Of a stretch of DNA of 64,000 nucleotides, positions 2,211 through 63,054 are shown in pieces. The notes under the pieces were generated by a model that was not told the origin of the DNA, made no database searches, and saw only the letters and a program-made list of their open reading frames with translations. Position 1 is the stretch's first letter; each line of letters begins with the position of its first letter. The position numbers and the translations under genes are program-made. The stretch spans positions 254,572,001-254,636,000 of the forward strand of contig OZ024742.1 of assembly GCA_964016885.1 (NCBI GenBank). The letters run 5' to 3'. Source of the stretch: Eledone cirrhosa (Eukaryota).

Positions 2211-2305
2211 AATAATTGTTTCTACTTTTGGCACAAGGCCAGCAATTACCCAATGCATTACTGGTACTTTATTCTATCGCCCCCGGAAGGATGAAAGGCA
2301 AAGTT
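2211..2305 (-). mobile_element. 5'-truncated Meta-domain SINE (young family)
   Basis: Reverse complement of the 3' half of the SINE seen full length at 10285 and 42515 (gcctttcatcc...gtaccagtaatgc...ggccttgtgccaaaagtagaaacaattatt). Confidence 0.85.
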
Positions 2306-4056: not shown

Positions 4057-4079
4057 ATTACATATACAGATATATATAT

Positions 4080-4205
4080 ATAATTGTTTGTACTTTTGGC
4101 ATAAGGCCAGCAATGACCCAGTGCAATACTGGTACTTTATTTTATCGACCCCGTAAGGATGAAAGGCAAAGTTAACCTCGGCAGGATTTGAACTCAGAAT
4201 GGCAA
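4080..4205 (-). mobile_element. 5'-truncated Meta-domain SINE
   Basis: B box plus Meta domain plus tail, in reverse orientation. atatatataat occurs on both flanks. Confidence 0.85.
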
Positions 4206-4313
4206 TATATATATAATTCATATATATTTATATCTATATCTATATGTGTGTGTATGTGTGTGTAGGTTATTTTTGTCTCTAGAAATATTATTATATTATT
4301 ATATATATATTAA

Positions 4314-4505
4314 AGGCGGTGAATTGGCAGTATTGGTAGAGGGTTGGACGCCATGCTTTCTAGCATAGTTACGTCCCTTTACGGTCTGAGTTCAAATCCC
4401 GCCAAGGTTAACTTTGCCTTTCGTCCTTACGGGGTCGGTAAAATAAAGTACCAGTAATTTACTTGGTAATTGCTGGCCTTGTGCCTAAAGTATAAACAAT
4501 TATTA
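4314..4505 (+). mobile_element. Full-length tRNA-derived Meta-domain SINE
   Basis: A box (tggcagtattgg), B box (gagttcaaatccc), gcctttcgtccttacggggtcggtaaaataaagtacc, then an attatt tail. Confidence 0.9.
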
Positions 4506-4604
4506 TAAACATATATATTAAATATATATATATATATATATACATAAATATACATATATATAATTATATATATATAATTATATAGATATATATAGATATA
4601 TATA

Positions 4605-5489: not shown

Positions 5490-7180
5490 CGGGTGGTAAG
5501 AGGACCCCTTGGTTCAACTCGAATTTTAAAGATGTGCTCTAAGCAAAGAAAGAAGTTTATAAAACTTGTTTTGTTGTAGTGTAAGCAGACCCGGAAATTT
5601 GCACCTAGAATAGCAAAGGCTTCCAAGGTTAAGACATGGGAGGATTAAGGGTGATCAAAAATCTAACATTTGGTAAGCAAATAAAGCATTCTGGCAGATC
5701 ACTTGCTAACTTCATAATAATAAGTCCCCTTCAACAGATGCTACCAAGAACGCTTGTGGGGTTCTCCTCTCTGAAGAAAGGTGTATCCTTGCAAGGTGAA
5801 GAGAATACTATTGTTGTGTCTAAGCTAGCTGAAGAACAGTGTGGTTTTCGCCCTGGATGCATCACAGCAGAGCATTCTTTGAGAAATCATGGGAGTATTG
5901 TCAAGAGTCGTATGCTTGTTCCATAGACCTTGAAATGGTATATGATGGCATTCTATGAGACTTGTTGGGCAAAGTTCAGCATGAATATCACATTGAAGGA
6001 CATCTTGTTGCCTTACCAATACCCTTGTGGACCAACACCCTTGTTCAAATCAATGGTATTAAGCATAACGATTCATGCGGTTGTCTGCTGGAGATGCATA
6101 ATTTCACCTCCTCTGTTCATAATTTTATGAACAGGATTGATATACACAGCCAGGTTAGAAGCGATATCAAGAACTGCACTTGTAAGATCAGATGACATGG
6201 TATTATTTAACTTGTCAGAAGAGGATTTCTGACATGTGCTTGATAGGTTTGAAGCTGAAGCTGCACAGCATGAATGAAAATCAGTTCTGCAAATACAGAG
6301 TCACACTTCCAAGGAAGCCTATGCAGTTCACTTTACAGTGGAGTTTAACTGAAGCAGGTAGAAAGATTCAAGTATTTCAGAGCTGTTTTTGCAAGCGATT
6401 TAAGGCAGAAAGCTATACTAAGTGCAAGAATTATAGGAGCTGGTGCATTACTGTACCAGCTTCAGCACTTAGTCATCAGAAGACGGGAAATAGATGTGAA
6501 AGCCAAACTCACTGCCTCCAATTCAGTGTTTGGACCAACCCTTACCTGTAGTTATATATCTTGAATAATTGTTTCTACTTTAGGCACAAGGCCAGCAATT
6601 ACCCAGTGCATTACTGGTACTTTATTTTATCGACCTCGTAAGGATGAAAAGCAAAGTTAACCTCGGCAGGATTTGAACTCAGACCGTAAAGGGACGTAAC
6701 TATGCTGGAAAGCATGGCGTCCGACTCTCTACCGATACTGCCAATCCACCACCCTATATCTTGAATAATGAACAAAAGAATATGATCGCGAATACAAGTA
6801 GCCAACATTGGGTTCCTCCGAAGGTGCTTTGGAGTAATGTTACTCAACAGATTGCGTGGCTCAGAAATTAGAAATTCACTGTAGGTAAGGCTGCTACTTC
6901 TCCAAATTGAGAGATCACAGCTTTGATATTATGGATATGCAGTCAGGATGCCTAAGTAAAGAATTACTGGACAGATTTTATGAGAAAACCATCCAGCAGG
7001 AGACCTAGGTGGTGACCACAAGCAAGTTGACTGGATAACATCCATGACCTTGGCTGGTCTCACATGGGAATCCAACCATATCAATTAGAGACTGTTGCTT
7101 CTGCAGGACCTGCTGGAAGGCGAGCTTGATAACTCTGTCCCCATGTCCGCCCAGGAATAAGTGTGTAAAGAAAAAGAAAA
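5490..7180 (+). mobile_element. Highly decayed, internally deleted RTE-like LINE interrupted by a SINE
   Basis: EEQCGFRPG RT motif in ORF 5636-5926, RTE-like C-terminal residues near 6880-7040, and an A-rich end. Confidence 0.65.
6570..6754 (-). mobile_element. Full-length Meta-domain SINE with 15-bp TSD
   Basis: TSD tatatcttgaataat at 6555-6569 and 6755-6769 (attattcaagatata on the sense strand). Confidence 0.92.
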
Positions 7181-9550: not shown

Positions 9551-9747
9551 CCTCTACATCGCTTTCTCAATCTCTCTTTGTTTCCTTCACCAGGTTTTAT
9601 AAAAATTACCCTTTGTTTCCTCCACCTGGTTTTATAAAAATTACCCAAGAAATTCTTTGTGTTCATAATGCATCCCTACAGCTGCACCAGAAGTTACAGG
9701 TCCATACATACATAACATACATACATACAAACATACATACATACATA

Positions 9748-12700
9748 GTCAGTCAATGCGGTCAGTCACATATTTTGGTGTGGCAGAATATTCATTAAAT
9801 TTAAGAGGAATACTATCTCCGACAGTAATGCCACAACTACCAGTCATGTTGAATAACTGGATATTCTTCTAACTATATCTACTGAAGACACCTTTTATTC
9901 GAATTCGTAGAGATGTCCGACTAAATACATAATTCATTTTACAAGGATTTGCTACAAACAGCATGGCTGAACACAACATCAACAACATTAAGGAAGTACC
10001 GAAGAAAAACAACGAGAAAGGTAAACAACATTTATTCAGTTGTAGCTACAGAAGAAACCGAAATTATAAATCGCATTTCTCTTGGAGTTGCGAACTTAAT
10101 GATGATTTATTTAATTGTTATAAAATGGCAAAAAAACAATCCGTCCATTGGCTATATGAACAGAATGAAGCTACACTGGGACGAAATACACTCAGAGCTA
10201 AATTATTTCACAGCGAAACAATTACGCCAACAAGCGACGTTTGTTGAACGTAAAAATAAGATAAATATTATTAATTGTAAGTCAGGGCGGTGAATTGGCA
10301 GTATCGGTAGAGGGTCGGACACCATGCTTTGACGCATAGAGTTACAGACCTTGCCATTCTGAGTTCAAATCCCGCCGAGGTTAACTTTGCCTTTCATCCT
10401 TACGGGGTCGATAAAATAAAGTACCAGTAATACACTGGGTAATTGCTGGCCTTGTGCCAATAGTAGAAACAATTATTAATTGTAAGTCCCCCACAACAAA
10501 CATGGAATCAACAACACGTGCTACAGGTCGCCATGCTACTAGACTTCCTAGCAGCCAGGTCTAATAGTGCCTTGAAATAACTATGCCTGTAAGAGACTTG
10601 ACACCACCTGTACCATCTAAGTCTACCTCGAATGCTGGGGAAAATACTATCGATAATAATAATAATCTAAGAAATTTGACACCACGTTTACCATCCGAGT
10701 CTACCTCGAATATCGTGGAAAATACTACCGAAGATGATAATAATCAAAAATATAAACAATTGAAAATTTCCCTCAACGAAATCTTCCAGAGAGAAATTAA
10801 TTTATGTATAAATATCTCTCTTGCTGAACGTATTAAAACGACAATATTTAATAAAAAAAAAAAAACAACAAATAAGGAAATATTACGTGTTATTGACGAA
10901 ATAGGGAATGAATATTTACGATGGATAAAAACCCCAACATTTTAGCCAATCAACGCCTGTTTATATGCCTTAGCAACGACAGTGAAACAGTATCTTGGTG
11001 ATAGCAGAGATATTAACAAGAACAAAACACCACCAAAAATACCATCATATATAACTATAATAGCAAAAAAGATTGCTGACCTACGAAAAACCATAGGATA
11101 TGGGACAATGCTCCTTACATGCACACAAACACAAAAAAACCTCACTCCTCACCAACAAACAGTGAAAAATAAAATAGAGACGATGTTTGGTAACAGTATA
11201 ACCAGAACTCTTCAATATAAGCTGATACATGAAGAAGGTAGATGAAAGAGAAGTGCGTAATAAAAGATTCAGATGAAACCAAACATCAATCTATAGAGAT
11301 ATGAAGGGCAAAATAATAGGTGTCACTGAGGCCCCATCCCAGAAAGACATAGATTCCTTTTGGAGAAAAATATGGGGTGAAAAGAAGAATTTCAGCCAAG
11401 ATGAGGTATGGCTAAAAGAAATCTGAAAGAACTATTGCTTCTACACTACAACAAAAACATACGAAATAAGTGAGGGTACTCTTGAGATTGTGATAGGAAA
11501 ACTCCAAGAAAAGAAAACACCAGGAAGAGACATGATTGTCGGCTAGTGGTACAAAAACCTGATATTCTATCGCAGGTATCTTACTGACCTCTACCAACAA
11601 GTTCTTAAGGGAGATACACTTATACCAGAATGGTTGACATTAGCACAAACATTATTGGTCCTTAAGAACAAAGAGACCCACTTGGCAAAAGAATACTGAC
11701 CCATTACATGCCAGAACCTGATGTTTAAGATGTATACAGCCTGCCTGAACCTATTCCTCCAAGATCACTGTGAAAATAATAGCATCATCACAGATGAACA
11801 AGCAGATGGAAAGAAAGGGGTTTGGTGATGTGCTGAACAACTCTTAATCAACAACACTGAGGTGTGACAACTTAGGAGGAATATGGCTACAGTCTAGCTG
11901 GACTACAGGAAAGCTTTCGATTCTGTTCCCCACTCTTGGATGATAGAGGCCCTCTAACTTGCTAAAGTGCCAGACATTATTATCAGAGCCATAGAGAAGC
12001 TGTCTTCTTCTTGGGCTACTATCCTAAAGTTAAAGACAGAGAAGGAGGACTCTATTTTCACTGATAAAATAAAATATCCCAGGGGTATATTTCAGGGAGA
12101 CAGTCTCTCTGTGATATTATTCATCCTTTCATTAAACCCCTTGTCCTTTCTGCTCAAGAAATGTGAAGGATACATCATTGTCGCACAGGAGGACAGAAAT
12201 ACGAACCTAACCCAATCTGAAACTCTATACCAAGAATAGGGATGAGAGGAAGAAAAATCTTGACCCGGTTACAACTTTCTCAAAGGATATAGGAATGGAG
12301 TTTGGCCAAGATAAATGCTCATATATGACTGTAAAGCGGGGAAAAACAACAACCCAATCTAGCAACAATGTCATCAATGACCTAACTGTCTCACCAATAT
12401 CTGATGAGGACTGCTACAGATACCTGGGGATAGATGAGAACATATCCTATAATGGTATCTGTAATAAAGAACGCGTAACCAAGGAATACTACACCCGATT
12501 AAGGAAGATTTGGTCATCGGAACTCTCTGCGCAAAACAATGTGTTTGCTGGGCCTGTCCTAACACCAATGTTTGGAATACTCAATTGGACGATAGACGAA
12601 ATCCGAGCAGTTGATGTTGGAACTCGAAAAATACTAAACAACACTGGAATCTTCCACATCAACAGTGACATAGACTGCCTTTACTTGAAACGTAAGCAGG

Positions 12701-13980: not shown

Positions 13981-14022
13981 CATACATACATACATACATA
14001 CATACATACATACATACATACA

Positions 14023-14056
<34 letters not shown>

Positions 14057-19206: not shown

Positions 19207-19270
<64 letters not shown>

Positions 19271-21000
19271 TTTTCTTTATTAACCACAAGGGTTTACATA
19301 AAGTAGACATTAAGGATAGTACAGGACAATACAGGACGGTACAAATGGGCATTTCTGCGTGTAAAAAAAACAGAGGTTGAAATAAAATAACAAAGAAAAA
19401 TTCCCCAATAGGGGGGAGACTTCCGAGGGACATTTGTGGAGAAAGCCCATTAAAAGACCACAGTGGCCCTGACCACCAGGGCAAGTGCCCTCTCCCAGTT
19501 TTCCACCTTTAATTTACAGACACATACTCAGAGAAGGCCCATTCATTCGGGCCATACTTGCTTCTCTCACCCATCTTTCAACAAAATGCTGGGAAGAGAG
19601 CACTTCCCTCTCTACCCTGATTTTCCTTTTCAAATGAAATTTGAAAAAGTTAATCAGGGCATCACCGAAGAGGTAAGTGCTCGTCTTCAGCCCTTTCAAA
19701 CGTGTCCACCATACTATCTCTTTCGCCATGGCCACCAGACAGATAAAAACTGCCTGCCCTTCCCGGCTAAAGGAAGGGGGCGGGGCAATCCTCACGATGG
19801 ACTCAGCTGATAGCTGGATCCGTCCTGCACGTGACAGCAGGTGTTCGACATAAACCCACAAGTCAGCAATGCTCGGACACTGGACGAGTGCGTGCAGGAC
19901 GGTTTTGTCGCCCTGCGCGCATCTCGGACATGCCCGGCTGACGGCACCTCCATGCCTGTAGAGTTTATCCCGAACTGGCAAAGCTCCACGGTAGCACTGC
20001 CAGGCCAGGGATTTCTGGAAGTTGTCCATAGGCCCCGGCCCGAAAGTCCTTCCTAAGAGATTAGCTAGTTGATTTTCGTCGACGCCTAGAGTTTCTCCAA
20101 GTACGTCGTCGCTCTTCCCCTCCACTAATCCTCTATAGAACGCCAAGATGGAGTTTCCACCGATCAAATTGCCCAATTGGTTGACGGCTGTAAGCGCCTG
20201 AAGACATTCCAGTCTCCAAACGCTCTATCTCGGTCTTCGCTTGACCCAGGACTGCAGCTCCGTCAAGGAGACGAGCTGGGGAAAGACGTGTCTAGCAAAC
20301 GGCGACCACACCTGATCACCGTCGAGGAAGAGGTGGAGATGTCGTAGCCTGAGCGCGTGTCTGCGCATCATCATCCACTGCATGCCCAGCCCTCCACGTA
20401 GCGGGTGTTGACAGCAGATAGACCGCCTGGCCATCGGAGCGCGTCCCTTCCACAGAAAGCGAAAGAGCAAACGCTCCAGTGCAGTCAGGCGGGGCTTAGG
20501 ACAAGGTACAACGGTCAGGCGGTAGTAGATGACGGACGCGATGTACGCGTTAGCCACCTCCGCTCGACCTTTCAGGGATAGCTTCCTCTCCGCCCATTTA
20601 TGGGTGAGAGAAGCCACCCAGTTTTTGTCCGTCTGGATGTCCGGACCGAACCAGACCACTAGGAATTTAACCGGTCTGTCCGTCCAGCGCCCGACGACGC
20701 TGTTGGACGGCATGGACCTGCCTCTCCAGGTGCCGAGCTGCAGGCCCACTGACTTTCACCGCTTCGTATTCTCTTAGTGTAGTGCCGATCGCCTCGATGT
20801 GTTTGGCGTTCGACACCACTACGGTGACATCGTCCGCATATGCTAACACAGTTTGTGCAGTAATGGCTCGAGAGTCAATACGTACAAGAGGGACGAGAGG
20901 GTACATCCTTGCCGGACCGAGCTCATGATGTTGAACGGTTCTGAAAGTTGACCGTTTACTCTCACCACAGAGCAGATGTCGCTGTGCATGGCAGCGATCC
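19205..21000 (-). mobile_element. 5'-truncated Tx1/L1-clade LINE ORF2 (RT and zinc finger) with (ATT)n tail
   Basis: SVRQGCTLS, AYADDV, LSLKGRAEVAN, GGLG, CPRC...TVLHALVQC. The 3' end reads cccttgtggttaataaagaaaac(att)n. Confidence 0.9.
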
Positions 21001-21834
21001 AAAACAAACTTAAACACGAACTAATTCCTATAAGTTCATAATTCATTTAATCTTTTCTTCATTCACCTTATATCCTTAATATTTTTATTTTAAATAAAAT
21101 ACATATTAATAAATTCCTTTTCGCACATATTATTAAACCATTCAATATATAAACCTTAAATAAATACTATTCTTAATTCCTTTTTCTTTAATCATAAACA
21201 TCACCATTCATAAACCTCATTAACTTTTAATTTCAACATTTTTTTAAAACTATGTATTATCTTACAACGTTTTTTTTTTATTTTCTCTGTGAGACAGTGT
21301 TTCTCAGTATTAAAGGTTATCTCTCTCTCTCTCACGCATTTCTCCTCCTCTCTCATCCTTCCTTCTTATACTCCTCCCCCGTCATCCTTTATTTTCTTTC
21401 TTCCTCTTCCTTACCTTTTCCTTCCCCCTCCTTTTTTTTCCCAATCTCATATATACATCTTACTTTATTTTTCATATGTTGATTTACCACTTCACTGCTC
21501 GCAAGTATTTTTTAAACTTCATATCATGTCTCCCTATTTTATCTGATGGGAACGCAAATATCATCCCATGATGATATTTGTTCTTGAAATGCGCATAATA
21601 AAATACATGGAACTGTGTTAATTATCTTTTGATCTTATATTATATATATATGTGTATGTATGAATGTATGTATATATATATGTATATGTGTGCGTGTATA
21701 TATATATATGTTTATATATATATATGTGTGTGTGTATGTGTATAGGTGTGTATATGTGTATATAAATATATATGTGTATGTGGTTGTATGTGTGGTTGTA
21801 TGTGTGGTTGTATGTGGTTGTATGTATGTATTTA

Positions 21835-24372: not shown

Positions 24373-25314
24373 CATATATATATGTATATATAAACACACA
24401 CACATAAGTACAAAGAGTTACAACACCATATAAATAAAAATACACACATACACACATATATATATATATATATACATACACTTATATACACGACGACATA
24501 CATACACGTAAAATTAATATCTAAAAATCAAAAGGGCGTGGGTATGTAAAGGGTAAGGTGGAGAGTGGGTGGGAATAAGGAAAATAAATAACGTAAGAAA
24601 AAGTAAAAAAATAAGAGGAGATAAGGGAGGAAAAGAAAATAAGGGTACAGAAAGTGAGTTCAGAGAGTAATAAAAGTCGTAGTAGATGTAAGGCGTAAAG
24701 AGCAAAGAAGAAGTTCAAGGTGGTTAAGTCATGGTAGCGACCTTGAACTTCTTTGCTACGACTTTGCTTTACGCCTTACATCTACTACGACTTTTATTAC
24801 TCTCTGAACTCACTTTCTGTACCCTTATTTTCTCTTTCTCCCTTATCTCCTCTTATTTTTTAACTTTTTCTTACGTTATTTATTTTCATTATTCCCACCC
24901 ACTCTCTACCTTACCCTTTACATACCCTCGCCCTTTTGATTTTTAGATATTAATTTTACGTGTATGGGCGGTGGATTGGCAGTATCGGTAGAGGGTCGGA
25001 CGCCATGCTTTGACGCATAGAGTTACGGCCCTTGCCATTCTGAGTTCAAATCCCGCCGAGGTTAACTTTGCCTTTTATCCTTACGGGGTCGATAAAATAA
25101 AGTACCAGTAATATACTGGGTAATTTCTGGCCTTGTGCCAATAGTAGAAACAATTAATTTTACGTGTATGTATGTTGTCGTGTATATGTGTATATAAGTG
25201 TATGTATATATATATATATATATATATGTGTGTATATGTATGTATACATTTTTATATATATGTGTATGTGTATGTGTATGTATGTGTATACATGTATATA
25301 TATATGTGTATATA

Positions 25315-34450: not shown

Positions 34451-34830
34451 GGCAGCAAATTGGCAGGGATTTTAGAATGTTAGAATCTATTTTGTTGCAG
34501 TGTTTGTTCTGTCTCTCTGCACTTTGAGTTCAAATACTACCGAAGTCAACTTTATCTTTCATCCTTCCAATAAACCACTGGTCAATATAATTGGCTTTCA
34601 CCTCCCCAAATGTCTGGCTTTGTGAGAAATCATTATCAGCATTATTATTAGGCAGTATCGTAGAGGGTCGGACGCCATGCTTTGATGCATAGAGTTACGG
34701 CGCTTGCCATTCTGAGTTCAAATCCCGCCGAGGTTAACTTTGCCTTTCATCCTTACGAGGTCGATAAAATAAAGTACCAGTAATGCACTGGGTAATTGCT
34801 GGCCTTGTGCCAAAAGTAGAAACAATTATT
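34451..34830 (+). mobile_element. Old Meta-domain SINE (34451-34635) followed by a young, slightly 5'-truncated SINE (34651-34830)
   Basis: B boxes gagttcaaat, Meta domains and attatt tails. Confidence 0.85.
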
Positions 34831-34837
34831 ATTATTA

Positions 34838-36010
34838 TTTTGATAGCTCAGTCATTGTTGTTATTAAACCAGAAAATTTGCCCTAATGAACATGAAGTCA
34901 CTACCTGCAGTCTCAGATATTGAGGATGTAACGGAGGGTCTTTGCTGTTCCCAGTAGGCATGCCTTCTGGAGTGTTCTAAAAAGAGGGCTGAGCTAATGT
35001 TCTTTAACCAGCCCTGGAAGCACTTAAGACGATGGGAGTGACCTTCATTTCATAACAGTTCCAAATTCGTTTCAGTTCCCACTTTAAATCCTGGTACCAG
35101 TTCATTTTCTCTTTCTCCTTTTCTTGCACTCTTTTGTCAAGGGGGTAAGCTACATCCACATATAATCAAGCTAGATCTCTTTTCCTTGTCCAATAAAGGC
35201 AGGTCAGGCCTATTGTGTTCTAAGTCTTTGTCTGTTTGCATCCTGAAATACCACAGCAACTTCACTTGATCATTTTCTGTCACTGACTCTGACTTATACT
35301 GATATTATTTCTCAGAATAAGGTAATTTATTCAGTTTACATAAATGTCAGTGAATCACATTTCCTATGATATCATGCCTCCATCCTTTATAGTCAGTCAG
35401 GGCTAGGTGTTTAAACTCAGATATGTTACAGTTTCCTTTCTCACTCTCCACAGATCATACAGCATAGGCTTGCCTCCTCCTTGCCAATATGGTGTTTCAT
35501 CCACTTTGTTCTAAGGGCTTGCTCCTGTGCAACCAGTAGCATTCATTCTGTGGCTTACTTAAGGTCCACTTTTTTAACCAGTTCCATGTCTGCAGATATA
35601 TGAACTCTGTTTTCTTTAAAGAATGTTAAAAGGGCCTTTGCATGAAGATTGTTCTTCCTCTTTGTTGGTACTTCTTTCTTGGACATCCACTGGTCTATTG
35701 TCTCCTCCTTCAATACAACCTTACACATTGGCTCATTACTCTCAGACATATATCGTTGTAGACAGCTCTTCCCCACCTGAACACAGTCCTCTATTCTAAT
35801 TAGACCTCTTCCTACTTCAAATCCCCTTAAGTACAGTCTATCAACATCACCCTTCTTATGAAACATACTCTAGATAGTCATTGATTTCCTTGTCTTCCTT
35901 TCCAGTCTTCTTGCTCATATACATTCCATTTAAGAATTCCCGCACTGTATCCAATGATAGAAACAGCTCAGGAATTCACTGCAGTTAGGACGTTTCTATT
36001 ATTCAGATGT
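34838..36010 (-). mobile_element. Decayed 5'-truncated Dong/R4 copy (older subfamily)
   Basis: MFHKKGDVDRLYLR...GRGLI. The 3' UTR and (TAA)n tail are homologous to the intact copies. Confidence 0.88.
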
Positions 36011-36116: not shown

Positions 36117-36170
36117 TGTACTGTATTTTACCCTACATGTCGGCCTGTGTGGGCATTAAATGAAATCATT
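36117..36170 (+). mobile_element. Extremely truncated Tx1-like 3' tail between two (TAT)n tracts
   Basis: catgtcggcctgtgtgggcattaaatgaaatcattatt resembles catgttagcccttctggccaataaagaaaccattatc at 46434-46470. Confidence 0.55.
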
Positions 36171-36189: not shown

Positions 36190-39100
36190 TTGTTGTTATT
36201 CCTTGAATCTCAGTCATTGATGTTGGTTAACTGGAAAGTCAGTTGGAATGAATATCAAGCCACTACCTGCAGCCTCAGATATTCAGGACGTATCGGAGGG
36301 TTCTTGCTGTTCCCAGCAAGCATGCCTTTTGAAGCGTTCCAAAAAGCGTGAAGGGGCCGATTTTCTTTAACCATCCCTGGAAACTTTTGGAGATAGTCCC
36401 CAGTGCGCCTATGACAATCGGGATCACTTTGACTTCATGGCAGTTCCAAATCCTTTTCACCTCACACTTTAGGTCCTGGTATCGGTTAATTTTCTCCCTC
36501 TCCTTCTCTTGCACTCTCGTGTCGAATGGGCAGGCCACGTCCACAATCAGACACGATCTTTTTTCTTTGTCCACAACCACCAGGTCAGGTCTATTGTGTT
36601 CCAGTTTCTTGTCCGTCTGTATCCTAAAATCCCACAGCACCTTCACCTGATCGTTCTCCATCACCGCCTCTGGCCTATGCTCATACCATTTCTCAGAATG
36701 TGGTAAATTGTTTACTTTGCACAGGTGCCAGTGGATCACCCTGCCCATCACATCATGTCTCCAGCCCTTATAGTGGGTCTGGGCTAGGTGTTTACACTCG
36801 GACACAATGTGAGCCACAGTCTCCTCTCTGTCTCCACAGATCCTGCACAGTGGGCTAGCCTCCTCCTTGTAAATATGGTGCTTCAACCACTTCGTTTTGA
36901 GGGCCTGCTCCTGCGCAGCCATTAGCATTCCTTCTGTAGCCTTTTTGAGGTCTCCTCTTCTCAACCAGTTCCATGTCTGTGGATATCTAAATTCAGTTTT
37001 CTCAAAGAAGGTACTATGAAGGGATTTTCCCTGAAGGCTGCTCTTTCTCCTTGATGTTATTTCCTCCTTGGACATCCCCTGGCCTTCTGTCCCCTCCTTC
37101 AGTACAGTTCTGAGCATTGGCTCCTTACTATCAGTCACGTATTTGTATAGGTTGTTTTTCTCCATCTGAACACAGTCCTCTATGCTGATAAGACCTCTTC
37201 CACCCTCAGATCTCGTTAGGTAGAGTCTATCGACATCACTCCTCTTGTGGAACATGTTGTAGATAGTCAATAGCTTCCTAGTCTTCCTATCCATTTCTTT
37301 TTGTTCAGCAACATTCCATCTCAGAATTCCAGCACTGTACCTAATAATAGACACAGCTCGGGAATTTACTGCGCTTATGGCATTTCTGCTGTTCAGATGT
37401 GACTTCAATACGCACCTTATTCTCCGAATGTATTCGGTTCTTAACAATTCCTTCATTTTTTTGTTCTTTATGCCATCAGCCTCCAGAACGCCCAAATACT
37501 TGTATCCTTCCTCAGAGTCAATTTCCTTTATCATCTCACCTGTTGGTATCTGGATTCCGTTATTTCTGCTCAACCTACCCCTCCTCATCACAATGACTCC
37601 ACATTTACCAATACCAAACTGCATACATATATCACTGCTGAAAATACGGACAGTGTCAACAAGCACATCCAACTCCTTCTCACTTTTCCCGAAGAGCTTA
37701 AGATCGTCCATGAAGAGGAGGTGATTGATGGTAAGCTCTCCCCTTCCCAACTTGTATCCTGCTCTCACTTTTCGCAGCATAATGGTCAAGGGCATCAGGG
37801 CAAGGACAAACAACAGAGGGGACAGGCTATCTCCCTGGAAGATACCTCTCTTGATCTTCACGCTTCCCAAGGATACTCCAGTTGATGTCAACTCTGTCTC
37901 CCAGGACCCCATACTCCTGCCCAGCAACTGTCTGATGTTCTCTGCCACCTTGAAGATCTCCAGGCTTTTGGTGATCCAAGAATGAGGCACCATGTCAAAT
38001 GCCTTTCTGTAGTCTATCCATCCCATGGCAAGATCAGTGTGTCTCCTCCTGCAATTCCCCATTACCATTTTATCAATAAGTAACTGGTCCTTTGTACCAC
38101 ATGACTTCTTTCGGCATCCTTTCTGTTCGTCCGGTAAGAAGTTGTTTGTGTGGAGGTGATGGTAGATTTCCTCAGACACAATGCTCGTCAACAGTTTCCA
38201 CATTACGGACAGACATGTGATAGGTCTATAGTTGGTAACATCATTACCCTTGATTCGGTCTTTCATTATCAGAACTGTGGTACCTTTTGTCAACCACTCT
38301 GGCACCTCACCCGACACCAAGCAGTCATTGAACATGGCCGTCAGCTTCGGGTGGAGGGATGTTAAATTTTTAATCCAATACCCCTGCACACCATCTGGGC
38401 CTGGCGATTTCCAGTTGGTTAGTTTTTTGGCCTGCCCCTTGAGAGTTTCAACTGTGATACTCAAATCAGTTTGTTGGTGTGCCTGTTCACCGATCTCCCT
38501 CTGTACTGTCTCAATCCACCCTGCCTGGTCATTATGTCTAACATCCTGCTCCCATATTCCTCTCCAGAATATTTTAGTTTGTTCCGCCCCAGGGATCAAG
38601 TCGTTGCCTCTTTCTTTCCCCTCAAGCTGTCCAAACAGCATCTTCTGGTTGTTGTCGAACATGCGGTTCTGTTTATACTGACTGACTCTGTTCTCGTATC
38701 GCCTGATTTTGGCACTCTTTGCTACAATGCGTTGCTTCAGTTCCTCTATGATAATATTTAGCTTTTTCCTCCTAGTGTTGTACTTTATTTCGAGTCTATT
38801 TTTAGTGCCTATGTTTTTTAGTGTCCCATTCAGTAGTGACTCAAGCTTTCCTATGTCATTTCTCATTTCCTTGATTTGACCACTCAGTCGTTTCTTCCAC
38901 CAAGGCTCTGCTCTTTCTTGTCTGTTGTTTCCTCTCGCTTTTATACCAAGTAGTTTCCTCACCGTATTTGCTGTTGTTTTGAGGATATTGTTGCACTGGT
39001 GAAGGCTCCTCGCCTCAAGGTATGGGATGACTTTGTTTACCTTAGCTGTTGTTTCTTTTAACTTTTTCCTGTCTACAAATCTTAGGTTCATACGTTTCCC

Positions 39101-40717
39101 ACTATCATTGTTCAATTCATCTACCACTAAATTTAGGATGTCAACCGAATCTTGTCCTAGCCCGTCAGCATTCATCTCCTCAGTGGCCGTATCTCTGTTC
39201 CAGGTATTATTTATCTCAGTATTTAGATCATTGTCTGCTTCGGGTGGTTCCTCCGTTCTCTCGACCTCTTCACCTTCATTTCCCACTGGCTCGTGTGTCC
39301 GGCATATTACACCCTCCATCTCCAAGCTATTCTCTCTGCTCAGTTCCTCCAGTTCCACCTCGCTTATCCACCCATTAGTTCTTATTACCCGAGCCAGCCC
39401 GGCCAATTTTTGTTCATCTAATTTAAATAGACCAATCTCTTTCCAGATGTTATGCATCCTTTTCCTATAGCCCCTCTCCTTGGGGTTACTTTTCAGGTAA
39501 CATTGCATAACAGTTCTATTCAATTCTTTCGTCCAGTTGGTTCTGGCCCCTTTCTTTCTTCTCTTTCCTCCAACATCAGCAGTATTTGGTTGACAGTCAG
39601 GTTCCTGCTGCTGAGCCAGGGAGCACCTGTTGGGTGAGAGTCTGTCACATGACGTTCTAGTCTCCATTTCACCATTATTCGAACTGTTTAGGTTCGATAT
39701 TTAAACACTCTTATCGAGGATTGGCGAATGTATGGTTACATAGCCATCTGTGGATTCTCCGTCGCCGGTGTTTGCGCCGCTCCACTTGGCACTTGTGTGG
39801 CATTATCCCCACGCTGTAGACGAACACAAATAAACAAACAAACACACAGGCAGAAAAGACCCTAAAAATGAATAAGCATAAGTTTCATTTTAATGTAGTG
39901 TTCGAATGTCTGACTTAGTTTTTCCCCCCTCTTCTTTGTCCGTCCGCTTGTTTCTCTCTTCATTCTTATTTTCTTTACGTTTTTTTTTTTTGTTTTGTTT
40001 TTCTCGTTTTTTGCTGTTGTTGCTGTGCTGCTTTGGTTTTGTTGTTTGTTTTTCTTTTTTCTTTTGAGTCTATTTATATATTTTGATGCCTTCCTCTTTT
40101 TTAGTAGTAGGAATTCTATAATGTGGTGGCAGCAGCCAGCAGGCAGATGTGGGAGACAGTAGCGGCTGTATCGATACTGAGACAGTGGTGGTGGTGATGT
40201 CGATACCGAGGCAGTGGTGGTGGTGATGTGATCGTATTACTGTAGTGATGGTGTTGTAGCGGTGGTAGCAATGAAGGAGTGGTGGCGGCGGTGATGGGAT
40301 AGTGGTGGTAATGATGGCAGTAGTGAGTGGTGGTGGTGAAATTGCCGTTATCTGGCTGTTGTGTTTAGTGTACACAGAGAGGTGATGGGGTAGGTGGTGT
40401 ATCTAGTTTCTGGTGTTGGTGAGTTTGGTGTTGTTTGGCTGTTCTATATAGTGTAGACAGAGGAGGGGGGTGTTCTTCTTCCATTTATAGCCATTTTCTT
40501 TTTTGAATATACAATGTACAATACAAAGTTGTATATTTGAATATTTGAGCCTTATAACAATATATTTTGGGTCCGAATTTTTGGGGACTCAAGCCGGATG
40601 CTTTACGTAGCATTTGTACTAAGAGTTGTTATTTCACAAATGATTTAAATATGTTAAAAATTCAAAACTTACGGGAGCGATTTCATGACCTTCCACCACC
40701 TCGTGCGTCTTCTTCCC
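36190..40717 (-). mobile_element. Full-length Dong/R4-clade non-LTR retrotransposon (copy A1, ~4.5 kb) in (TAA)n
   Basis: Single ORF, ~1.05-kb 5' UTR starting GGGAAGAAGACGCACG, short 3' UTR, and (TAA)n on both sides. Confidence 0.96.
36275..39667 (-). CDS. R4-clade polyprotein: Myb-like N-terminus, reverse transcriptase, CCHC zinc knuckle, restriction-like endonuclease (1130 aa)
   Basis: WTKELN...GYRKRM, SPGPDG, YRPITCL, WIDYRKAFD, GIFQGDSLSP, LFMDD, YKYLG, CRIC...HIVSEC, RH, RPD...DVACP...EKINRY. Confidence 0.96.
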   Translation of the reverse strand: METRTSCDRLSPNRCSLAQQQEPDCQPNTADVGGKRRKKGARTNWTKELNRTVMQCYLKSNPKERGYRKRMHNIWKEIGLFKLDEQKLAGLARVIRTNGWISEVELEELSRENSLEMEGVICRTHEPVGNEGEEVERTEEPPEADNDLNTEINNTWNRDTATEEMNADGLGQDSVDILNLVVDELNNDSGKRMNLRFVDRKKLKETTAKVNKVIPYLEARSLHQCNNILKTTANTVRKLLGIKARGNNRQERAEPWWKKRLSGQIKEMRNDIGKLESLLNGTLKNIGTKNRLEIKYNTRRKKLNIIIEELKQRIVAKSAKIRRYENRVSQYKQNRMFDNNQKMLFGQLEGKERGNDLIPGAEQTKIFWRGIWEQDVRHNDQAGWIETVQREIGEQAHQQTDLSITVETLKGQAKKLTNWKSPGPDGVQGYWIKNLTSLHPKLTAMFNDCLVSGEVPEWLTKGTTVLIMKDRIKGNDVTNYRPITCLSVMWKLLTSIVSEEIYHHLHTNNFLPDEQKGCRKKSCGTKDQLLIDKMVMGNCRRRHTDLAMGWIDYRKAFDMVPHSWITKSLEIFKVAENIRQLLGRSMGSWETELTSTGVSLGSVKIKRGIFQGDSLSPLLFVLALMPLTIMLRKVRAGYKLGRGELTINHLLFMDDLKLFGKSEKELDVLVDTVRIFSSDICMQFGIGKCGVIVMRRGRLSRNNGIQIPTGEMIKEIDSEEGYKYLGVLEADGIKNKKMKELLRTEYIRRIRCVLKSHLNSRNAISAVNSRAVSIIRYSAGILRWNVAEQKEMDRKTRKLLTIYNMFHKRSDVDRLYLTRSEGGRGLISIEDCVQMEKNNLYKYVTDSKEPMLRTVLKEGTEGQGMSKEEITSRRKSSLQGKSLHSTFFEKTEFRYPQTWNWLRRGDLKKATEGMLMAAQEQALKTKWLKHHIYKEEASPLCRICGDREETVAHIVSECKHLAQTHYKGWRHDVMGRVIHWHLCKVNNLPHSEKWYEHRPEAVMENDQVKVLWDFRIQTDKKLEHNRPDLVVVDKEKRSCLIVDVACPFDTRVQEKEREKINRYQDLKCEVKRIWNCHEVKVIPIVIGALGTISKSFQGWLKKIGPFTLFGTLQKACLLGTARTLRYVLNI

Positions 40718-40719
40718 TA

Positions 40720-40784
<65 letters not shown>

Positions 40785-40787
40785 CAA

Positions 40788-40975
40788 GGGCAGTGGATTG
40801 GCAGTATCGGTAGAGGGTCGGATGCCATGCTTTGTCGCATTGAGTTACGGCCCTTGTAATTCTGAGTTCAAATCCCGCTGAGGTTAACTTTGCCTTTCAT
40901 CCTTACGGGGTCGATAAAATAAAGTACCAGTAATGCACTGGGTAATTGGTGGCCTTTTACCAAAAGTAGAAACAA
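40788..40975 (+). mobile_element. Full-length Meta-domain SINE in a (TAT)n tract
   Basis: A and B boxes, Meta domain and tail. attattatca occurs on both flanks. Confidence 0.92.
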
Positions 40976-40994
40976 TTATTATCATTATCATTAT

Positions 40995-42405: not shown

Positions 42406-42413
42406 AATTATTT

Positions 42414-42700
42414 TGCCTTTCATTCTTACGGGGTCGATAAAATAAAGTACCAGTAATGTACTGGGTAATTGCTGGCCTTGTGCCTAAAGTAGAAACAATT
42501 ATTTGACAATCTAAGGGCGGTGAATTGGCAGTATCGGTAGAGGGTCGGACGCCATGCTTTGACGCATAGAGTTACAGCCCTTGCCATTCTGAGTTCAAAT
42601 CCCGCCGAGGTTAACTTTGCCTTTCATCCTTACGGGGTCGATAAAATAAAGTACCAGTAATGCACTGGTTATTTCTGGCCTTGTGCCAAAAGTAGAAACA
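42414..42700 (+). mobile_element. Tandem SINEs: truncated copy (42414-42500) and full-length copy (42515-42700) with TSD attatttgacaatcta
   Basis: The TSD is visible at ~42498-42513 and ~42701-42716. Confidence 0.92.
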
Positions 42701-42719
42701 ATTATTTGACAATCTATCA

Positions 42720-45629: not shown

Positions 45630-46470
45630 AGTATCTATAGAGGGCTAGTGGAGGGGAAGAGTGACAACATTCTCGGGGAAACCTTTAGTGTAGAAGACGA
45701 TCAGCTGTTTGCTCTCTTCAAGAGAAATTTCAGCCCGGGGCCTATGGACAACTTCCAGAAATCCCTGGCCTGGCAGAGCTACCGGGAACGTTGGCGGTTC
45801 AAGATAAGCTCTACAGGCACAGAAGTGCCGTCATCCGAACCTGTCCGAGATGCGCACAGAGCGACGAAACCGTTGTGCATGCACTTGTTCAGTGTTCGAG
45901 CATAGCTGACTTGTGGAGCTATGTCAAACATTTGCTGTCACATGCAGGACGGATCCGGTTATCGACTGATTCCATTGTGCAGATAGCCCCACCATCCTCC
46001 TTTAAAGAGGAGGAGGGGCAGGCAGTTTTCATCTGTTTGGTGACCATGGTAAAAGAGATTGTATGGTTGACAAGGTTGAAAGGATTGAAGACGGGCACTT
46101 TCCTCTTCGGCGAATCCCCGATTAACTTTTCCAAATTTCACTTGAAGAGGAAATTCAGGGTGGAGAGGAAAGTGCTGTCTTCTAGTAAGTTTGTTGAAAG
46201 GTGGGTGAAGAGTCTGGTCCGAGTGTATGGGCCCGAGTGGAAGATTGCTCTGGTGGTCAGGGTGACCGTGGTCTTTTGTGTGGTTTTCGCCACGAGTGAC
46301 CCTTGGAGTTTTCCCCCTATTGGGAATTTTTGTTGTTTGAATTTTTTTGGTATTTCTATCTTCTTGTTATAACTTTTTTTACAAGGCCAAAATCCACTTT
46401 GTATCATCATGTGCCGTCTGAAATGTTTTTCTTCATGTTAGCCCTTCTGGCCAATAAAGAAACCATTATC
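45630..46470 (+). mobile_element. Tx1/L1-clade ORF2 3' fragment with (ATT)n tail
   Basis: Homologous to 19514-20176 (YRGLVEGKSD, PGPMDNFQKSLAWQ, CPRCAQSDETVVHALVQC). Confidence 0.9.
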
Positions 46471-46484
46471 ATCATTATTATTAT

Positions 46485-49400
46485 TGTTCTTTGAGTCTCA
46501 GTCATTGATGTTAGTTAACTGGAAAGTTTGTTGAAATGAATATCAAGGCGCTACCTGCAGCCTCAGATATTCAGGACATGTCGGAGGGTTCTTGCTGTTC
46601 CCGGCAAGCATGCCTTTTGAGGTGTTCCAAAAAGTGGGGCTGGACTAAGCTTCTTTAACCATCCTTGGAAACTCTTTGAGATAGTACCCAGTGCGCCTAT
46701 GACAATCGGGACCACTTTGACTTCATGGCAGTTCCAAATCCTTTTTAACTCCCACTTTAAGTCCTGGTATCAGTTAATTTTCTGCCTCTACTTTTCTTGC
46801 AATCTCGTGTCAAATTGGCAAGCTACATCTACAATCAGGCACGATCTTTTTTCCTTGTCCAAAACCACCCGGTCAGGCCTATTGTGTTCTAATTTCTTGT
46901 CCGTCTGTATCCTAAAATCCCATAGCACCTTCCCCTGATCGTTTTCTACCACCGACTCTGGCTTATGCTCATACCACTTCTCAGCATGTGGTAAATTGTT
47001 TACTTTGCATAGGTGCCAGTGGATCACCCTGCCCATCACATCATGTCTCCAGCCTTTATTGTGAGTCTGGGCTAGGTGTTTATACTCGGATACAATGTGA
47101 GACACAATCTCCTCTCTCTCTCCACAGATCCTACACAGTGGGCTAGCCTCCTCCCTGTAAATATGGTGTTTCACCCATTTCGTTTTGAGGGCCTGTTCTT
47201 GCGCAGCCATTAGCATTCCTTCTGTAGCCTTTTTAAGGTCTCCTCTTTTCAACCAGTTCCATGTCTGTGGATCTCTAAATTCAGTTTTCTCAAAGAAGGT
47301 ACTATGAAGGGATTTTTCATGAAGGTTGCTCTTCTTCCTTGTTGTTATTTCCTCCTTGGACATACCCTGGTCTATTGTCCTCTCCTTCAGTACAATTCTG
47401 AGCATTGGCTCCCTACTCCCAGTCACGTATTTGTGTAGGTTGTTTTCTCCATCTGAAAACAGTCCTCTATGCTGATAAGACCTCTTCCAACTTCAGATCT
47501 CCTTAAGTAGAGTCTATCGATATCACTCCTCTTGTGGACACATGTTGTCGATAGTCAATAGCTTCCTAGTCTTCCTATCCATTTCTTTTTGTTCAGCAAC
47601 ATTCCATCTCAGAATTCCCGCACTGTACCTAATAATAGACACAGCTCAGGAATTTACTGTACTTATGGCATTCCTACTGTTCAGATGTGATTTTAATACA
47701 CTCCTTATTCTCCGAATGTATTCAGATCTTATCAATTCCTAACTTTTTTGTTCTTGATGTCATCAGCCTCCAGAACACCCAAATATTTGTATCCTTCTTC
47801 AGTGTGAATTTCCTTTATCATCTCACCTGTTGGTACCTGGATTCCGTTGCTTCTTCTCAATTTACCCCTCTTCATCATTAGGACTCCACACTTACTAATA
47901 CCAAGTTGCATACATATATCATTGCTGAAAATTCGGACAGTGTCAACAAGCACATCCAACTTCTTCTCACTCTTCCCGAAGAGCTTAAGATCGTCCATGA
48001 AGAGGAGGTGATTGATGGTAAGCTCTCCCTTTCCAAACTTGTATCCTGCTCTCACTTTTCGCAGTATAATGGTCAGGGGGATCAGGGCAAGGACAAACGA
48101 CAGAGGGGACAAACTATCTCCCTGGAAGATACCTCTCTTGATCTTCACCCCTCCCAAAGGTTCTCCACCCGATGTTAACTCTGTTTTGCAGGACTTCATA
48201 CTTTTGCCCAACAACTGTCTGATGTTATCTGCCACCTTGAAGATCTCTAGGCTTTTGGTTATCCGAGAATGAGGTACCATGTCGAATGCCTTTTTGTAGT
48301 CTATCCATCCCATGGCAAGACCAGTGTGTCTCCTCTTGCAATTCCTCATTACCATCTTATCAATAAGTAACTGGTCTATTGTACCACGCGACTTCTTTTG
48401 GCATCCTTTCTGTTCGTCCGGCAACAAGTTGTTTATGTGGAGGTGATGGTAGATTTCATCAGACACAATGTTTGTTAACAGTTTCCACATTACGGACAGA
48501 CATGTGATAGATCTATAGTTGGTAACATCATTACCCTTGATTCGGTGTTTCATTACCACAACTGTTTTACCTTTTGTCAACCACTCTGGTACCTCACCTA
48601 ACATCAAGCAGTCATTGAATATGGTAGTCAGTTTCGGGTGGAGGGATGTTATATTTTTAATCCAATACCCCTGCACACCATCTGGGCCTGGTGATTTCCA
48701 GTTGGTTAGTATTCTGGCCTGCCTCTTAAGAGTTTCAACTGTGATACTCAAATCAGTTTGTTGGTGTGCCTGTTCACTAATCTCCTTTTGTACTGTCTCA
48801 ATCCACACTGCATGATCATTATGTTTAACATCCTGCTCCCATATTCCTCTCCAGAATGTCTTAGTCTGTTCCGCCTCAGGGATCACGTCGTTGCCTCTTC
48901 CTTTCCCTTCAAGCTGTCCAAACAACATCTTCTGGTTGTTGTCAAACATGTGGCTCTGTCTATACTGACTGACTCTGCCCTCGTATCACCTAATCTTTGC
49001 ACTCTTTGCTATAATGCGTTGCTTCAGTTCCTCTATGATAATATTTAGCTTTTTCCTCCTAGTTTTGTACTTTATTTCCAGTCTAATTTTAGTGTCTATG
49101 TTTTGTAGTGTCCTATTCAGTAGGGACTCAAGCTTTCTAATGTCATTTCTCATTTCCCTGATTTGACCATTCAGTGGTTTCTTCCACCAAGGTTCTGATC
49201 TTTCTTGTTTGTTGTTTCCTCTCGCTTTTATGCCAAGTAATTTCCTCACCGCATTTGCTGTTGCTTTGAGGATATTGTTGCACTGGTGAAGGTTCCTCGC
49301 CTCAAGCTATTGGATGACTTTGTTTACCTTAGCTGTTGTTTCTTTTAACTTTTTCCTGTCTACAAATCTTGGGTTCATAGGTTTCCCACTATCATTGTTC

Positions 49401-51105
49401 ATTTCATCTACCACTAACTTTAGGATATCAGCCAAATCTTGTCCTAGTCCGTCAGCATTCATCTCCTCAATGGCCGTATCTTTGTTCCAGGTATTATTTA
49501 ATTCAGCATTCAGATCATTGTCTGCTTCGGATGTTTCCTCCCTTCTCTCAACCTCTTCACCTTCATTTCCCACTGGACACGTTTGCCTGGCATACTCCAC
49601 TCTCCATTTCCAACCTAATCTCTCTGCTCAGTTCCTCCAATTCCAGCTCGCTTATCCACCCATTAGTTCTTATTACCCGAGCCTGCCCGGACAATTTTTG
49701 TTCATCTAATTTAAATAGACAAATCTCGTTCCAGATGTTAAGCATCCGTTTCTTATAGCCTTTTTCCTTGGAGTTACTCCTCAGGTAACATTGCATAACC
49801 GTTCTATTCAATTCTTTCGTCCAGTTGTTTCTGGTCCCTTTCCTTCTTCTTCTTCTTCCTCCAACACCAGCAGTATTTGGATGACAGCCAGGTCCCTGCT
49901 GCTGGGCAAGGGAGCACCTGCTGGGTGGGAGTCTGTCACATGACGTTCCAGTCTCCACTTCACCGTTATTCGAACTGTTTAGGTTCGACATTTAAACACA
50001 CATATCGAGGATTGGTGAATGTATGGTTACATAACCACCGGTGATTTCATCACCCCCAGTGATTTGATCACCCCCGGTGATTTTAGCGAGGCACTATCAC
50101 GCTGTAGACGAACATAAATAAATAAACAAATAAATAGGTAAAAACTTTAAAAAATAAACATAAGTTTCATTGTAATGTTTGAATGTCTGACTTAGTGTTT
50201 TTTTTTTTGTTTTGTTTTTTTCTCTTTACGGTTTTCGTTGCTGCTGCGCTGTTTTGATTTTAGCTTCACGGGAAGTAGGGCTGTTGCGTTCAAAACTTTT
50301 GAAATTTGTTTCGACTTGTTGCTTATCATTATTATTATTATCAGCCGAGGTTAACCTTGCCCTCCATCCCCAATTGATGGCCTTGTGCCAAAAGTAGCAA
50401 CAATTATTATTATTATTATATTATACGGGGTCGATAAAACAAAGCACCAGCAATGCACTGGGCAATTGCTGGCCTTGCGCCAAAAAAAATAGAAACAATT
50501 ATTATTATTATATTATAGTTTAGATTTGACATCGTTTAAACTAAACACTTTGAGAAAGTTTTAGAGGTACAGCAGCAATAATGTTTTTGGTGTTGTTGTT
50601 GCTTCTGACCGGGTCACCAAATCAGTCTATATCTTTTGATACCTTCCTCGCTTAGTGGGACTACTACTATCCCTCTGTCTTAACAGTAGGTAGTGGGAGA
50701 GAATAGCGGCGGTAGCGATAATGTTGCAGTGGTGGTGATGTGATAGTAGTACTGTAGTGATGGTCTTGAAGTAGCCGTTGGTTTGGCTAGATTTTTTGTG
50801 TGTGGTAGTGGTGATGTTGGCGGTGGCGCTGGTGGTGTTGGTGGTGAAATTATTTGCCTGTTGTTTGTAGCCATGTAGCCATTTTTCTTTTTTGAGTATA
50901 ACATTTCTGATCCAAAATTAAATATTAAATATTGGGGCCCTATGCCATAATGTGATGCGTTGTCACTTCCTGAGAGCAAAAAACTCTAATCTTATGTTCC
51001 ATTTGTAATAAGAATTATTCTATCACAATTGTTTTAAATACGTAAAAATCAAAATCTTACGGTAGCGATTCCATAACACTCTATCCACCACGTGCGTATC
51101 TTCCC
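46485..51105 (-). mobile_element. Full-length Dong/R4 subfamily B copy with disrupted ORF
   Basis: ORF pieces 49563-49991, 49307-49600, 48986-49249, 47732-48949 and 46788-47426 are colinear with A1. The 5' end reads GGGAAGATACGCACG. Confidence 0.93.
50344..50500 (+). mobile_element. Two truncated SINE fragments inside the 5' UTR of the B copy, carrying clustered T>C changes
   Basis: Compared by eye with the intact SINEs at 10285, 34651 and 42515. Confidence 0.85.
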
Positions 51106-55777: not shown

Positions 55778-56650
55778 GGCGACCTACGTAGTAAATCGTA
55801 TCATCGTGAGCTCCGCAAAGGTTTGTTATTTCCGTTTGTTAAAAATTGACATTTATGGAAAATTTGTATTGTTAACTATATATAAGCGCACATACATTGT
55901 TTTCCGAAAAGGACACCCAAAACGATTGGGGCCTTGTGCCCAAAATTTAAACTTTTATGATTATCAAAAAATTTCTTTGAAAAAAATGGCTAATTCACCT
56001 CTGCACCAAGCAGCTGAGAGCCTTCCTCACAAATTAACACCTCACACCAACACCACCATTGTAAATGTTACTACGTTTGCCAACACTAAAAAAAATATAA
56101 GCAGTAGCAATATTTTAAATTTGACTCAGGCAGACATTCATTTCCCGCCATTACCAATGACTGCAAGTGTTAAAGCCGCCACCCCCACCACCACAGCGAC
56201 AACAGAAACAAAAGGAAAAAATAAATCAACTTGTGATGTCGAAATGTTTTCAACCAAAATGGACTCATCCACACCGAACACCACTGACGTCACCACCAAC
56301 ACAACTGAAACTAAAATTAATAATAACAAAAATAACGATAACAACAACAGCAACAATTACATTAAAAAAACCACCCTGAGTTTTGCCAGACTAGCCAAAC
56401 AGTGCGAAGCATTTACGGTAACTCAGGAGGAATTAGAAAATGGCAAAAAAATGGTAAAAAAAGATGCGTACAGGGTCAGCCCCCCCCCCTAATAAAATGG
56501 AGCATCGGCGCCTATGCACCGTGTCGTATCGAACAATTAATGTAAAATCGCGCCGAGTGGAACGGGCATCCGAGTCCCAAATCCAAAAACCTTTGGGACA
56601 TGTGTGGGCAAGAAAATCCCACATCAGACGTGGGCAGAAGTATGGAACCG
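55778..56650 (+). mobile_element. 5' end (5' UTR plus ORF1 start, ATG at 55986) of a probable Tx1/L1-like LINE
   Basis: Starts right after (TAT)n. Thr/Asn-rich N-terminus, then SFARLA and an RRM-like segment (TVSYRTI...IRRGQKYGTV) across a poly-C frameshift. Confidence 0.6.
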
Positions 56651-63035: not shown

Positions 63036-63054
63036 TTATTATTATTATTATTAT

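Follow-up and report, generated by a model that had tools for sequence, protein, structure and literature searches.

A SINE inserted at ATTA sites in Eledone cirrhosa, probably mobilised by a Tx1-group LINE with a similar 3' hairpin

SINEU of crocodilians is one of the closest described counterparts of the short interspersed element (SINE) analysed here, a repeat of ~188 nt found in 64,000 nucleotides of Eledone cirrhosa DNA (assembly GCA_964016885.1, contig OZ024742.1, positions 254,572,001 to 254,636,000, forward strand; hereafter the window, in which all positions are counted from 1). In both cases, a SINE inferred to be moved by a Tx1 long interspersed element (LINE) appears to have the same target preference as Tx1, with target-site duplications (TSDs) of ~16 bp and tandem insertions sandwiching a TSD (PMC4494074). 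SINEU differs by its small nuclear RNA heads, poly(A) tails and Mariner target, and the part of that source consulted reports no LINE with the SINEU-1 3' end, whereas the SINE in the window has a tRNA-like head, a predicted tail hairpin in common with Tx1-like ends and the target ATTA(W)T. Tx1-driven SINEs with a target preference are already known, but without a common tail, and the tail hairpin predicted here would be the new part. No report of a SINE sharing its tail with Tx1 was found in the open-access literature searched; one may be recorded in Repbase, in Dfam, in supplements or in the paper that first described the octopus SINEs. The SINE/LINE pair table in the portion of PMC3747384 consulted names no Tx1 partner.

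Within the L1 group, stringent-type pairs have been described for ZmSINE2/3 with LINE1-1_ZM and for SINEX-3_CR with L1-1_CR. In the former, from maize, the loop of a 3' hairpin is conserved while its stem has changed in a compensatory way, a pattern that the hairpin predicted here also suggests (PMC3472496). According to the same source, as far as consulted, three L1-clade pairs were known in 2012, all from plants and an alga. Those pairs differ in having plant or algal L1 partners, ~50-80 nt in common and T or A tails, whereas the pair proposed here comprises an animal Tx1-like LINE, ~25 nt in common, an ATT end and a fixed target. Loop-specific, stem-tolerant recognition of a 3' hairpin was tested experimentally for UnaL2/ZfL2, with such binding shown for zebrafish L2 elements (PMC4176376), and further precedent for it is given in PMC3472496; UnaL2 and ZfL2 belong to the L2 clade and have a different tail, and the hairpin here is predicted from sequence. 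In RTE-mobilised SINEs, the start of the TSD tracks the terminal microsatellite of the element, for which pairing or cleavage-site choice has been proposed (PMC6007223). That is a looser version of the present case: the match there is 1-2 bases and comes with an upstream T stretch, whereas here, at unique sites, 4-7 bases agree with the ATT phase. Microsatellite-targeting elements without long terminal repeats include the Tx1 elements Kibi and Koshi (TC and TTC repeats) and Dong (TAA repeats), and the consulted portion of their description names no ATT-targeting Tx1 family or SINE passenger (PMC3812793); the Dong-like copies in the window use the strand opposite to that of the SINE.

All DNA statistics below were obtained from the window alone, which is AT-rich, microsatellite-laden animal DNA consisting mostly of retroelements. 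A bacterial and archaeal contig collection scanned for more Tx1 ends or SINE copies gave no matches. With the copy at 10285 as the BLAST query, seven copies of nearly full length were found in the window, besides several relatives that are truncated or older, and 11 measured copies diverged by 2.1-13.1% from the in-window majority consensus. The repeat is short, non-coding, dispersed and multicopy, with TSDs and 5'-truncated copies, which are the general features of SINEs. The favoured reading is that this SINE, inserted at ATTA sites, is probably copied in trans by a Tx1-group LINE through stringent recognition of a predicted CUU(G/C)U-loop hairpin common to both.

The sequence-only reading of the window had called the SINE target-selective from four TSDs starting with ATTA, and all four were located, with lengths of 15-18 bp (10267, 6555, 24949, and 42498). 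The 18th base at 24949 may be the first G of the SINE. The fourth TSD (42498-42513/42701-42716, 16 bp) is not an independent site, as its 5' copy doubles as the ATT end of a truncated SINE at 42412-42497. Over the 12 SINE-type copies tested, a duplication starting with ATTA was present in 10 (lengths 6-20), whereas ATTA occurs at 0.67% of all positions in the window, and target selectivity was thus upheld. A reading in which ATT starts follow from AT-rich composition and the tail likeness from chance draws on the flanks of the SINE sites, which are 59-72% AT, and on the half of the ATT-start sites that fall within a microsatellite or next to the tail of another SINE. However, ATTA makes up only 0.3-0.8% of positions within 500 nt of the four TSD sites, and three clean sites with neither a microsatellite nor a neighbouring SINE tail (10267, 24949, and 6769) all start with ATTA (p ~3e-7). 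Local composition therefore fails to explain the TSD starts and was rejected as their cause; with the tail tests anchored at 3' ends also significant (see below), this reading as a whole is highly improbable.

The pre-insertion sequences of six sites were tallied. Positions +1 to +4 were invariant, +5 and +6 were T in five of the six, and -1 to -4 were mixed. In each of the 10 copies with an ATTA start, zero tail bases preceded the TSD. The junctions were informative at five sites, those with non-ATT sequence in a TSD of at least 13 bp, and at every one of them zero tail bases stood between the last ACA of the SINE and the TSD. Site choice is thus confined to the sequence downstream of the nick, in phase with the AUU end of the RNA, so that pairing between RNA and primer may contribute to targeting as much as endonuclease specificity. 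Such flush junctions would be produced if the AUU end paired at one fixed position with the nicked strand, and an endonuclease preference is compatible with them. A Tx1 partner whose endonuclease alone chooses the site by its sequence specificity, without RNA-primer pairing, overlaps the favoured reading as to the partner. Two APE clades have site-specific members, and Tx1 is one of them (PMC6007223), Kibi and Koshi provide microsatellite-targeting examples (PMC3812793), and ATTA was invariant at 6/6 sites; yet conservation ends at the nick and tracks the phase of the tail repeat, and the lack of tail bases outside the TSD at 5/5 sites would be expected if priming depended on base pairing directly behind the spacer. 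Site choice by the endonuclease alone is accordingly rather unlikely. Of the ATT-specific Tx1 partner that had been proposed, a Tx1-type partner and ATT-start targeting stand, on the loop, the stems, the 16-nt spacing and the polarity described below. ATT specificity of the endonuclease alone was not supported, as there is no conservation upstream of the nick and no Tx1 endonuclease within the window.

The evidence for the partner comes from the tails. Both Tx1-like ends that had been compared with the SINE end are present (46441-46470, plus; 19293-19264, minus); that comparison drew on the SINE end of the 42515 copy, and in the 10285 copy one base is different. The sense strand ends in ATT in the SINE and in the two long Tx1-like copies, Tx1 A and Tx1 B (Table 1). 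In an ungapped alignment of these three ends, set at the first ATT, each has a CTT(G/C)T loop exactly 16 nt upstream of it. Single-sequence folding gave the identical loop for each, and the flanking stems of 3-4 bp differ in sequence yet pair. With an older related tail at 55927 counted as a fourth lineage, 26 of 28 stem cells were paired, and both sides had changed in 3 of 4 pairs. This covariation is suggestive of a conserved hairpin.

In gapped alignments to the SINE tail anchored at the 3' end, the score of Tx1 B was reached by none of 1000 shuffles and that of Tx1 A by 12 of 1000. The controls (seven minus-strand R4 ends, one plus-strand R4-like end, and two repeat tails at 2737-3004 and 15282-15535 beside GAT/ATC-type triplet tracts, which we take to be RTE-type) were not significant (P 0.12-1.0). 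An RTE partner was rejected on the two latter tails, and on the question whether another LINE clade fits the SINE tail better, neither the R4/Dong-like nor the RTE-type tails in the window match it. Ungapped 21-mer identity with the SINE tail was 14/21 and 13/21 for the Tx1 ends; among 123,332 non-SINE positions, 20 and 91 score as high. An in-register stem was also present at five positions, two of which are the Tx1 ends, the sole ones then followed by ATTA. A model built from the two Tx1 ends without the ATT placed SINE-type tails as its top three non-self matches and in 9 of 19 matches overall. A descriptor scan returned seven SINE and two Tx1 matches against 0.02 in shuffles, but because these same sequences had served to design the descriptor, the scan carries no weight as a test. 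A third Tx1-type end, a 50-nt fragment at 36118-36167, matches Tx1 B at a level reached by 1 of 3000 shuffles, and the SINE tail at 65 or 6 of 1000 depending on which of two places is taken as the boundary. All three Tx1-type ends run into ATT tracts, with ATT on both sides only for the fragment. AATAAA occurs in the spacer of both long Tx1 ends and not in the SINE, a difference that would fit RNA polymerase II (Pol II) transcription of Tx1 and RNA polymerase III (Pol III) transcription of the SINE. A common 3' sequence with a conserved stem-loop, the stringent type of SINE/LINE pair, is thus found in the anchored tests and the pair counts.

Several results weigh against this partner. The common stretch is only ~25 nt and stops at the hairpin, without extension upstream, and the predicted hairpins are weak (folding z +0.6 to -2.1). 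The covariation count comes from four lineages, with the structure derived from these same sequences, and the 36118 fragment does not fold the hairpin. A covariance model from 11 SINE tails recovered neither Tx1 end at E<=10, and the Tx1-only model reached SINE-type tails only at E 0.11-8 (best E=0.11). No TSD was found at either long Tx1 copy, the window contains no young Tx1 copy, as opposed to the young, open R4/Dong-like copies (98% identical), and none of the protein matches carries the name Tx1, which is a well-fitting label and not a tree placement. No complete L2 or CR1 3' end for comparison was identified in the window. The tail likeness is significant when anchored at the 3' ends and borderline in blind model searches; the earlier claim of a tail shared with the Tx1-like LINE therefore holds for the anchored tests, the loop and the 16-nt spacing, with only modest returns from blind searches.

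The same results bear on a reading in which the partner is another LINE family absent from the window (L2, CR1, Nimb or similar) and the likeness to Tx1 is a convergence on a small hairpin and an A-rich spacer before an ATT repeat. The ~25 nt in common and the borderline blind searches favour it, as do the mollusc SINE partners described so far, which in the consulted part of PMC11481361 are CR1, CR1-Zenon, L2 and Nimb, and the rarity of L1-group SINE/LINE pairs (PMC3472496). On the other hand, the same loop, 16-nt spacing and repeat phase recur in two Tx1 copies that are 18% apart, and no other 3' end in the window shows loop, spacing and phase together. An absent family of another clade is on balance unlikely, slightly more so than site choice by the endonuclease alone.

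The L1-group assignment of the LINE rests on its protein matches. For the Tx1-like open reading frame (ORF), the closest named relative belongs to Argonauta hians (61% identity); a match in Octopus bimaculoides is weaker. Among solved structures, the relatives are closest to L1 ORF2p, and one of them, P0003, matches L1 ORF2p at E ~1e-50 vs R2 at 1e-24. Full-length relatives (~40-44% identical to P0003) have APE, reverse transcriptase (RT) and zf-RVT domains, and the APE region was lost by 5' truncation in the window copies. By these sequence matches, the LINE is of the L1 group. Distant relatives are fused to a zf-CCHC/ZCCHC3-like ORF1, which fits the anatomy of Tx1 elements. Another protein, P0004, closely related to the Tx1-like ORF2, carries the label of a Herbaspirillum metagenome-assembled genome and is probably animal DNA in a bacterial bin.

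Tx1 A and Tx1 B are both disrupted, both retain zf-RVT and are 82% identical over 805 aligned nt. As truncated and disrupted copies with such divergence, compared with SINE copies 2-13% from their consensus, they are not supported as the partner family itself. As some SINE copies are as young as 2%, the LINE at work probably belongs to a younger sister family of these two broken copies. In Octopus vulgaris, 13 recently active L1-Tx1 families have been reported (PMC13282606). The ATT tract of Tx1 B is tail-to-tail with an R4/Dong-like copy. An inverted pair of ~220 nt (19017-19235/22636-22856, 93% identical) encloses Tx1 A, and its second arm (22636-22856) has an ATT tract where the Tx1 A tail would match, hinting at the pre-insertion site.

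The abundant young LINE of the window is R4/Dong-like. Its two full-length copies have open 1141-aa ORFs and are 98% identical over 736 nt, which makes the family a candidate for recent activity. The RT is closest to R2, and a C-terminal restriction-like motif is presumably present. Between 34800 and 64000, about a dozen R4/Dong-like pieces, all minus, form a nested array in which most junctions lie in ATT/AAT tracts. A mobilisation of the SINE by this LINE, on the same microsatellite, would be in keeping with its age, which fits SINE copies 2% from consensus, with the TAA repeats targeted by Dong (PMC3812793), and with the SINEs that adjoin R4/Dong-like copies at 34825, 40788 and 50344. The polarity is opposite, however: from 34.8 to 64 kb, every R4-like match is minus and the inspected 3' ends have AAT on the sense strand, whereas 6/6 SINE copies and both Tx1-type ends are plus with ATT. 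The R4/Dong-like tail is also unlike that of the SINE (P 0.17-1.0 when anchored; best 10-12/21 in any register), and three SINE copies are at non-microsatellite sites. With no common tail and opposite target polarity, an R4/Dong-like partner was rejected and is very unlikely despite its fitting age.

If a Tx1-group LINE is the partner, the steps would be as follows. Pol III would make a SINE RNA ending in AUUA(UU), and Tx1 ORF2p would bind the hairpin loop. The APE endonuclease of Tx1 would nick the bottom strand, leaving a primer that ends in ...TAAT; this primer would pair with the AUU 16 nt past the loop, and reverse transcription would start there. Pairing at that distance would fix the junction and select ATTA(W)T sites, and a second nick ~7-20 bp away would produce the TSD. 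Since each SINE or Tx1 insertion would leave an ATT end, later SINE and Tx1 copies and Dong-like copies on the other strand would pile into the same tracts. A wider proposal, for which we see the chances as evenly balanced, has a stringent Tx1 with ATT targeting as the driver of an octopod high-copy SINE lineage. This LINE would measure the 16 nt between the RNA loop and the priming site, the two would be the first SINE/LINE pair of the L1 group in animals with a recognition hairpin in common, and they would compete with Dong elements, from the opposite strand, for one microsatellite niche. In Octopus vulgaris, SINEs account for ~11.6% of the genome, and the majority of the families active recently have no class assigned (PMC13282606). 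If true, the engine of an abundant SINE would be named, stringent RNA recognition would prove to have survived in an L1-group LINE of animals, and the nesting of retrotransposons in ATT tracts would be explained. The loop, the 16-nt ruler and the AUU primer would also provide a small, testable system for endonuclease vs RNA-DNA pairing in targeting.

Table 1. Positions of the SINE copies, Tx1-like ends and R4/Dong-like LINEs in the window
Feature	Position	Strand	Remarks
5' TSD copy	10267..10283	+	17 bp, starts ATTATTA
Full-length SINE	10284..10471	+	~188 nt; tRNA-like head, body, hairpin tail
A-box-like Pol III promoter motif	10296..10307	+	sequence by eye vs box consensus
B-box-like motif	10361..10372	+	sequence by eye vs box consensus
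Predicted tail hairpin	10447..10459	+	TGGC-CTTGT-GCCA; loop ends 16 nt before the ATT at 10472
3' TSD copy	10472..10488	+	flush with SINE end, no extra tail
Full SINE	6555..6769	-	15-bp TSD 6769-6755/6569-6555; BLAST and TSD check
Full SINE	24949..25170	+	17-18-bp TSD 24949-24966/25153-25170; BLAST and TSD check
Two SINE insertions at one site	42407..42716	+	truncated 42412-42497 (7-bp TSD); full 42515-42700 (16-bp TSD)
Full SINE	40777..40984	+	10-bp TSD in ATT tract at 5' end of R4/Dong-like copy
Nearly full SINE	34641..34839	+	ATT repeats on both sides; tail-to-tail with old R4/Dong-like copy
5'-truncated SINE	4072..4217	-	13-bp TSD starting ATTAT
Full SINE	4294..4522	+	SINE 4314-4499; degenerate duplication only, scored as miss
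5'-truncated SINE	2216..2305	-	ATT end, TSD not found, scored as miss
Two truncated SINE-type copies, tandem	50328..50517	+	in ATT tract; first with internal deletion or different body
Tx1-like LINE A	19207..21001	-	5'-truncated; disrupted RT and zf-RVT
Tx1 A hairpin	19294-19282	-	AACC-CTTGT-GGTT; ATT tail 19269-19207
Tx1-like LINE B	45634..46488	+	5'-truncated
Tx1 B hairpin	46441-46451	+	GCC-CTTCT-GGC; ATT tract from 46465
Tx1-type 3' end, 50 nt	36118..36167	+	between two ATT tracts; matches Tx1 B
Old related tail	55927..55953	+	same loop, further stem variant, same spacing; no clean ATT
Full-length R4/Dong-like LINE	36200..40720	-	1141-aa ORF (36275-39700), AAT tail
Second full-length R4/Dong-like LINE	58188..63037	-	1141-aa ORF (58262-61687)

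The head of the SINE is likely tRNA-derived. Its A- and B-box-like motifs were assigned by eye against the box consensus, and neither ARAGORN nor Rfam gave a tRNA match in the SINE. The 42515 copy is without an internal TTTT. In the tandem pairs at 42407-42716 and 50328-50517, a later SINE has inserted where an earlier one has its ATT end or TSD. Older, diverged relatives at 34440-34640 and 9387-9560 keep the box motifs and part of the body, and the one at 34440 has the tail in a shortened version.

MetaSINEs (PMC4824008) and the octopus OK/OR1/OR2 elements have a tRNA-type head followed by a short body, as does the SINE here, which is a likeness of plan. In MetaSINEs, the 66-bp Meta domain directly follows the head and is 61-86% identical to its consensus, according to the part of that source consulted. 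Two 14-nt motifs taken from BivaMeta-SINE1 had two and four matches in the window at <=3 mismatches, which is below chance, and none was in the Meta position. The MetaSINE label given to the element by the sequence-only reading was therefore rejected, the flanking Meta motifs being absent from the body. A 24-nt stretch of the body resembles one Meta member (19/24 by eye), and there is a weak by-eye likeness to the end of the BivaCORE-SINE2 core; the CORE heptamer, as named in the consulted part of PMC5786205, was not seen in the aligned body. Short SINE motifs had no match in the supplements searched of PMC5786205, PMC11481361 and PMC4758252 (one PMC4758252 file excluded).

Within the R4/Dong-like array, LINE-LINE junctions without an ATT tract were observed at 51864 and 54899, and the frame at 54173-55783 reads through two R4-like families, the second more divergent than the first. 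The 5' untranslated region of the copy at 58-63 kb contains a tandem duplication of ~330 nt (62224-62876, 96% identical). Two old plus-strand R4-like copies at 11256-16303 are ~80% identical, and their ends are not in AAT tracts. Other repeats in the window include an RT fragment at 1-1455 (minus), presumably RTE-like, a further RT fragment at 31406-32077 (minus) and a GIY-YIG (Penelope-like) fragment at 26368-26883 (plus). Inverted repeat pairs at 28718-29446 (163 nt, 96%) and 23851-26067 (~660 nt, 81%, partly microsatellite) are possibly similar to miniature inverted-repeat transposable elements.

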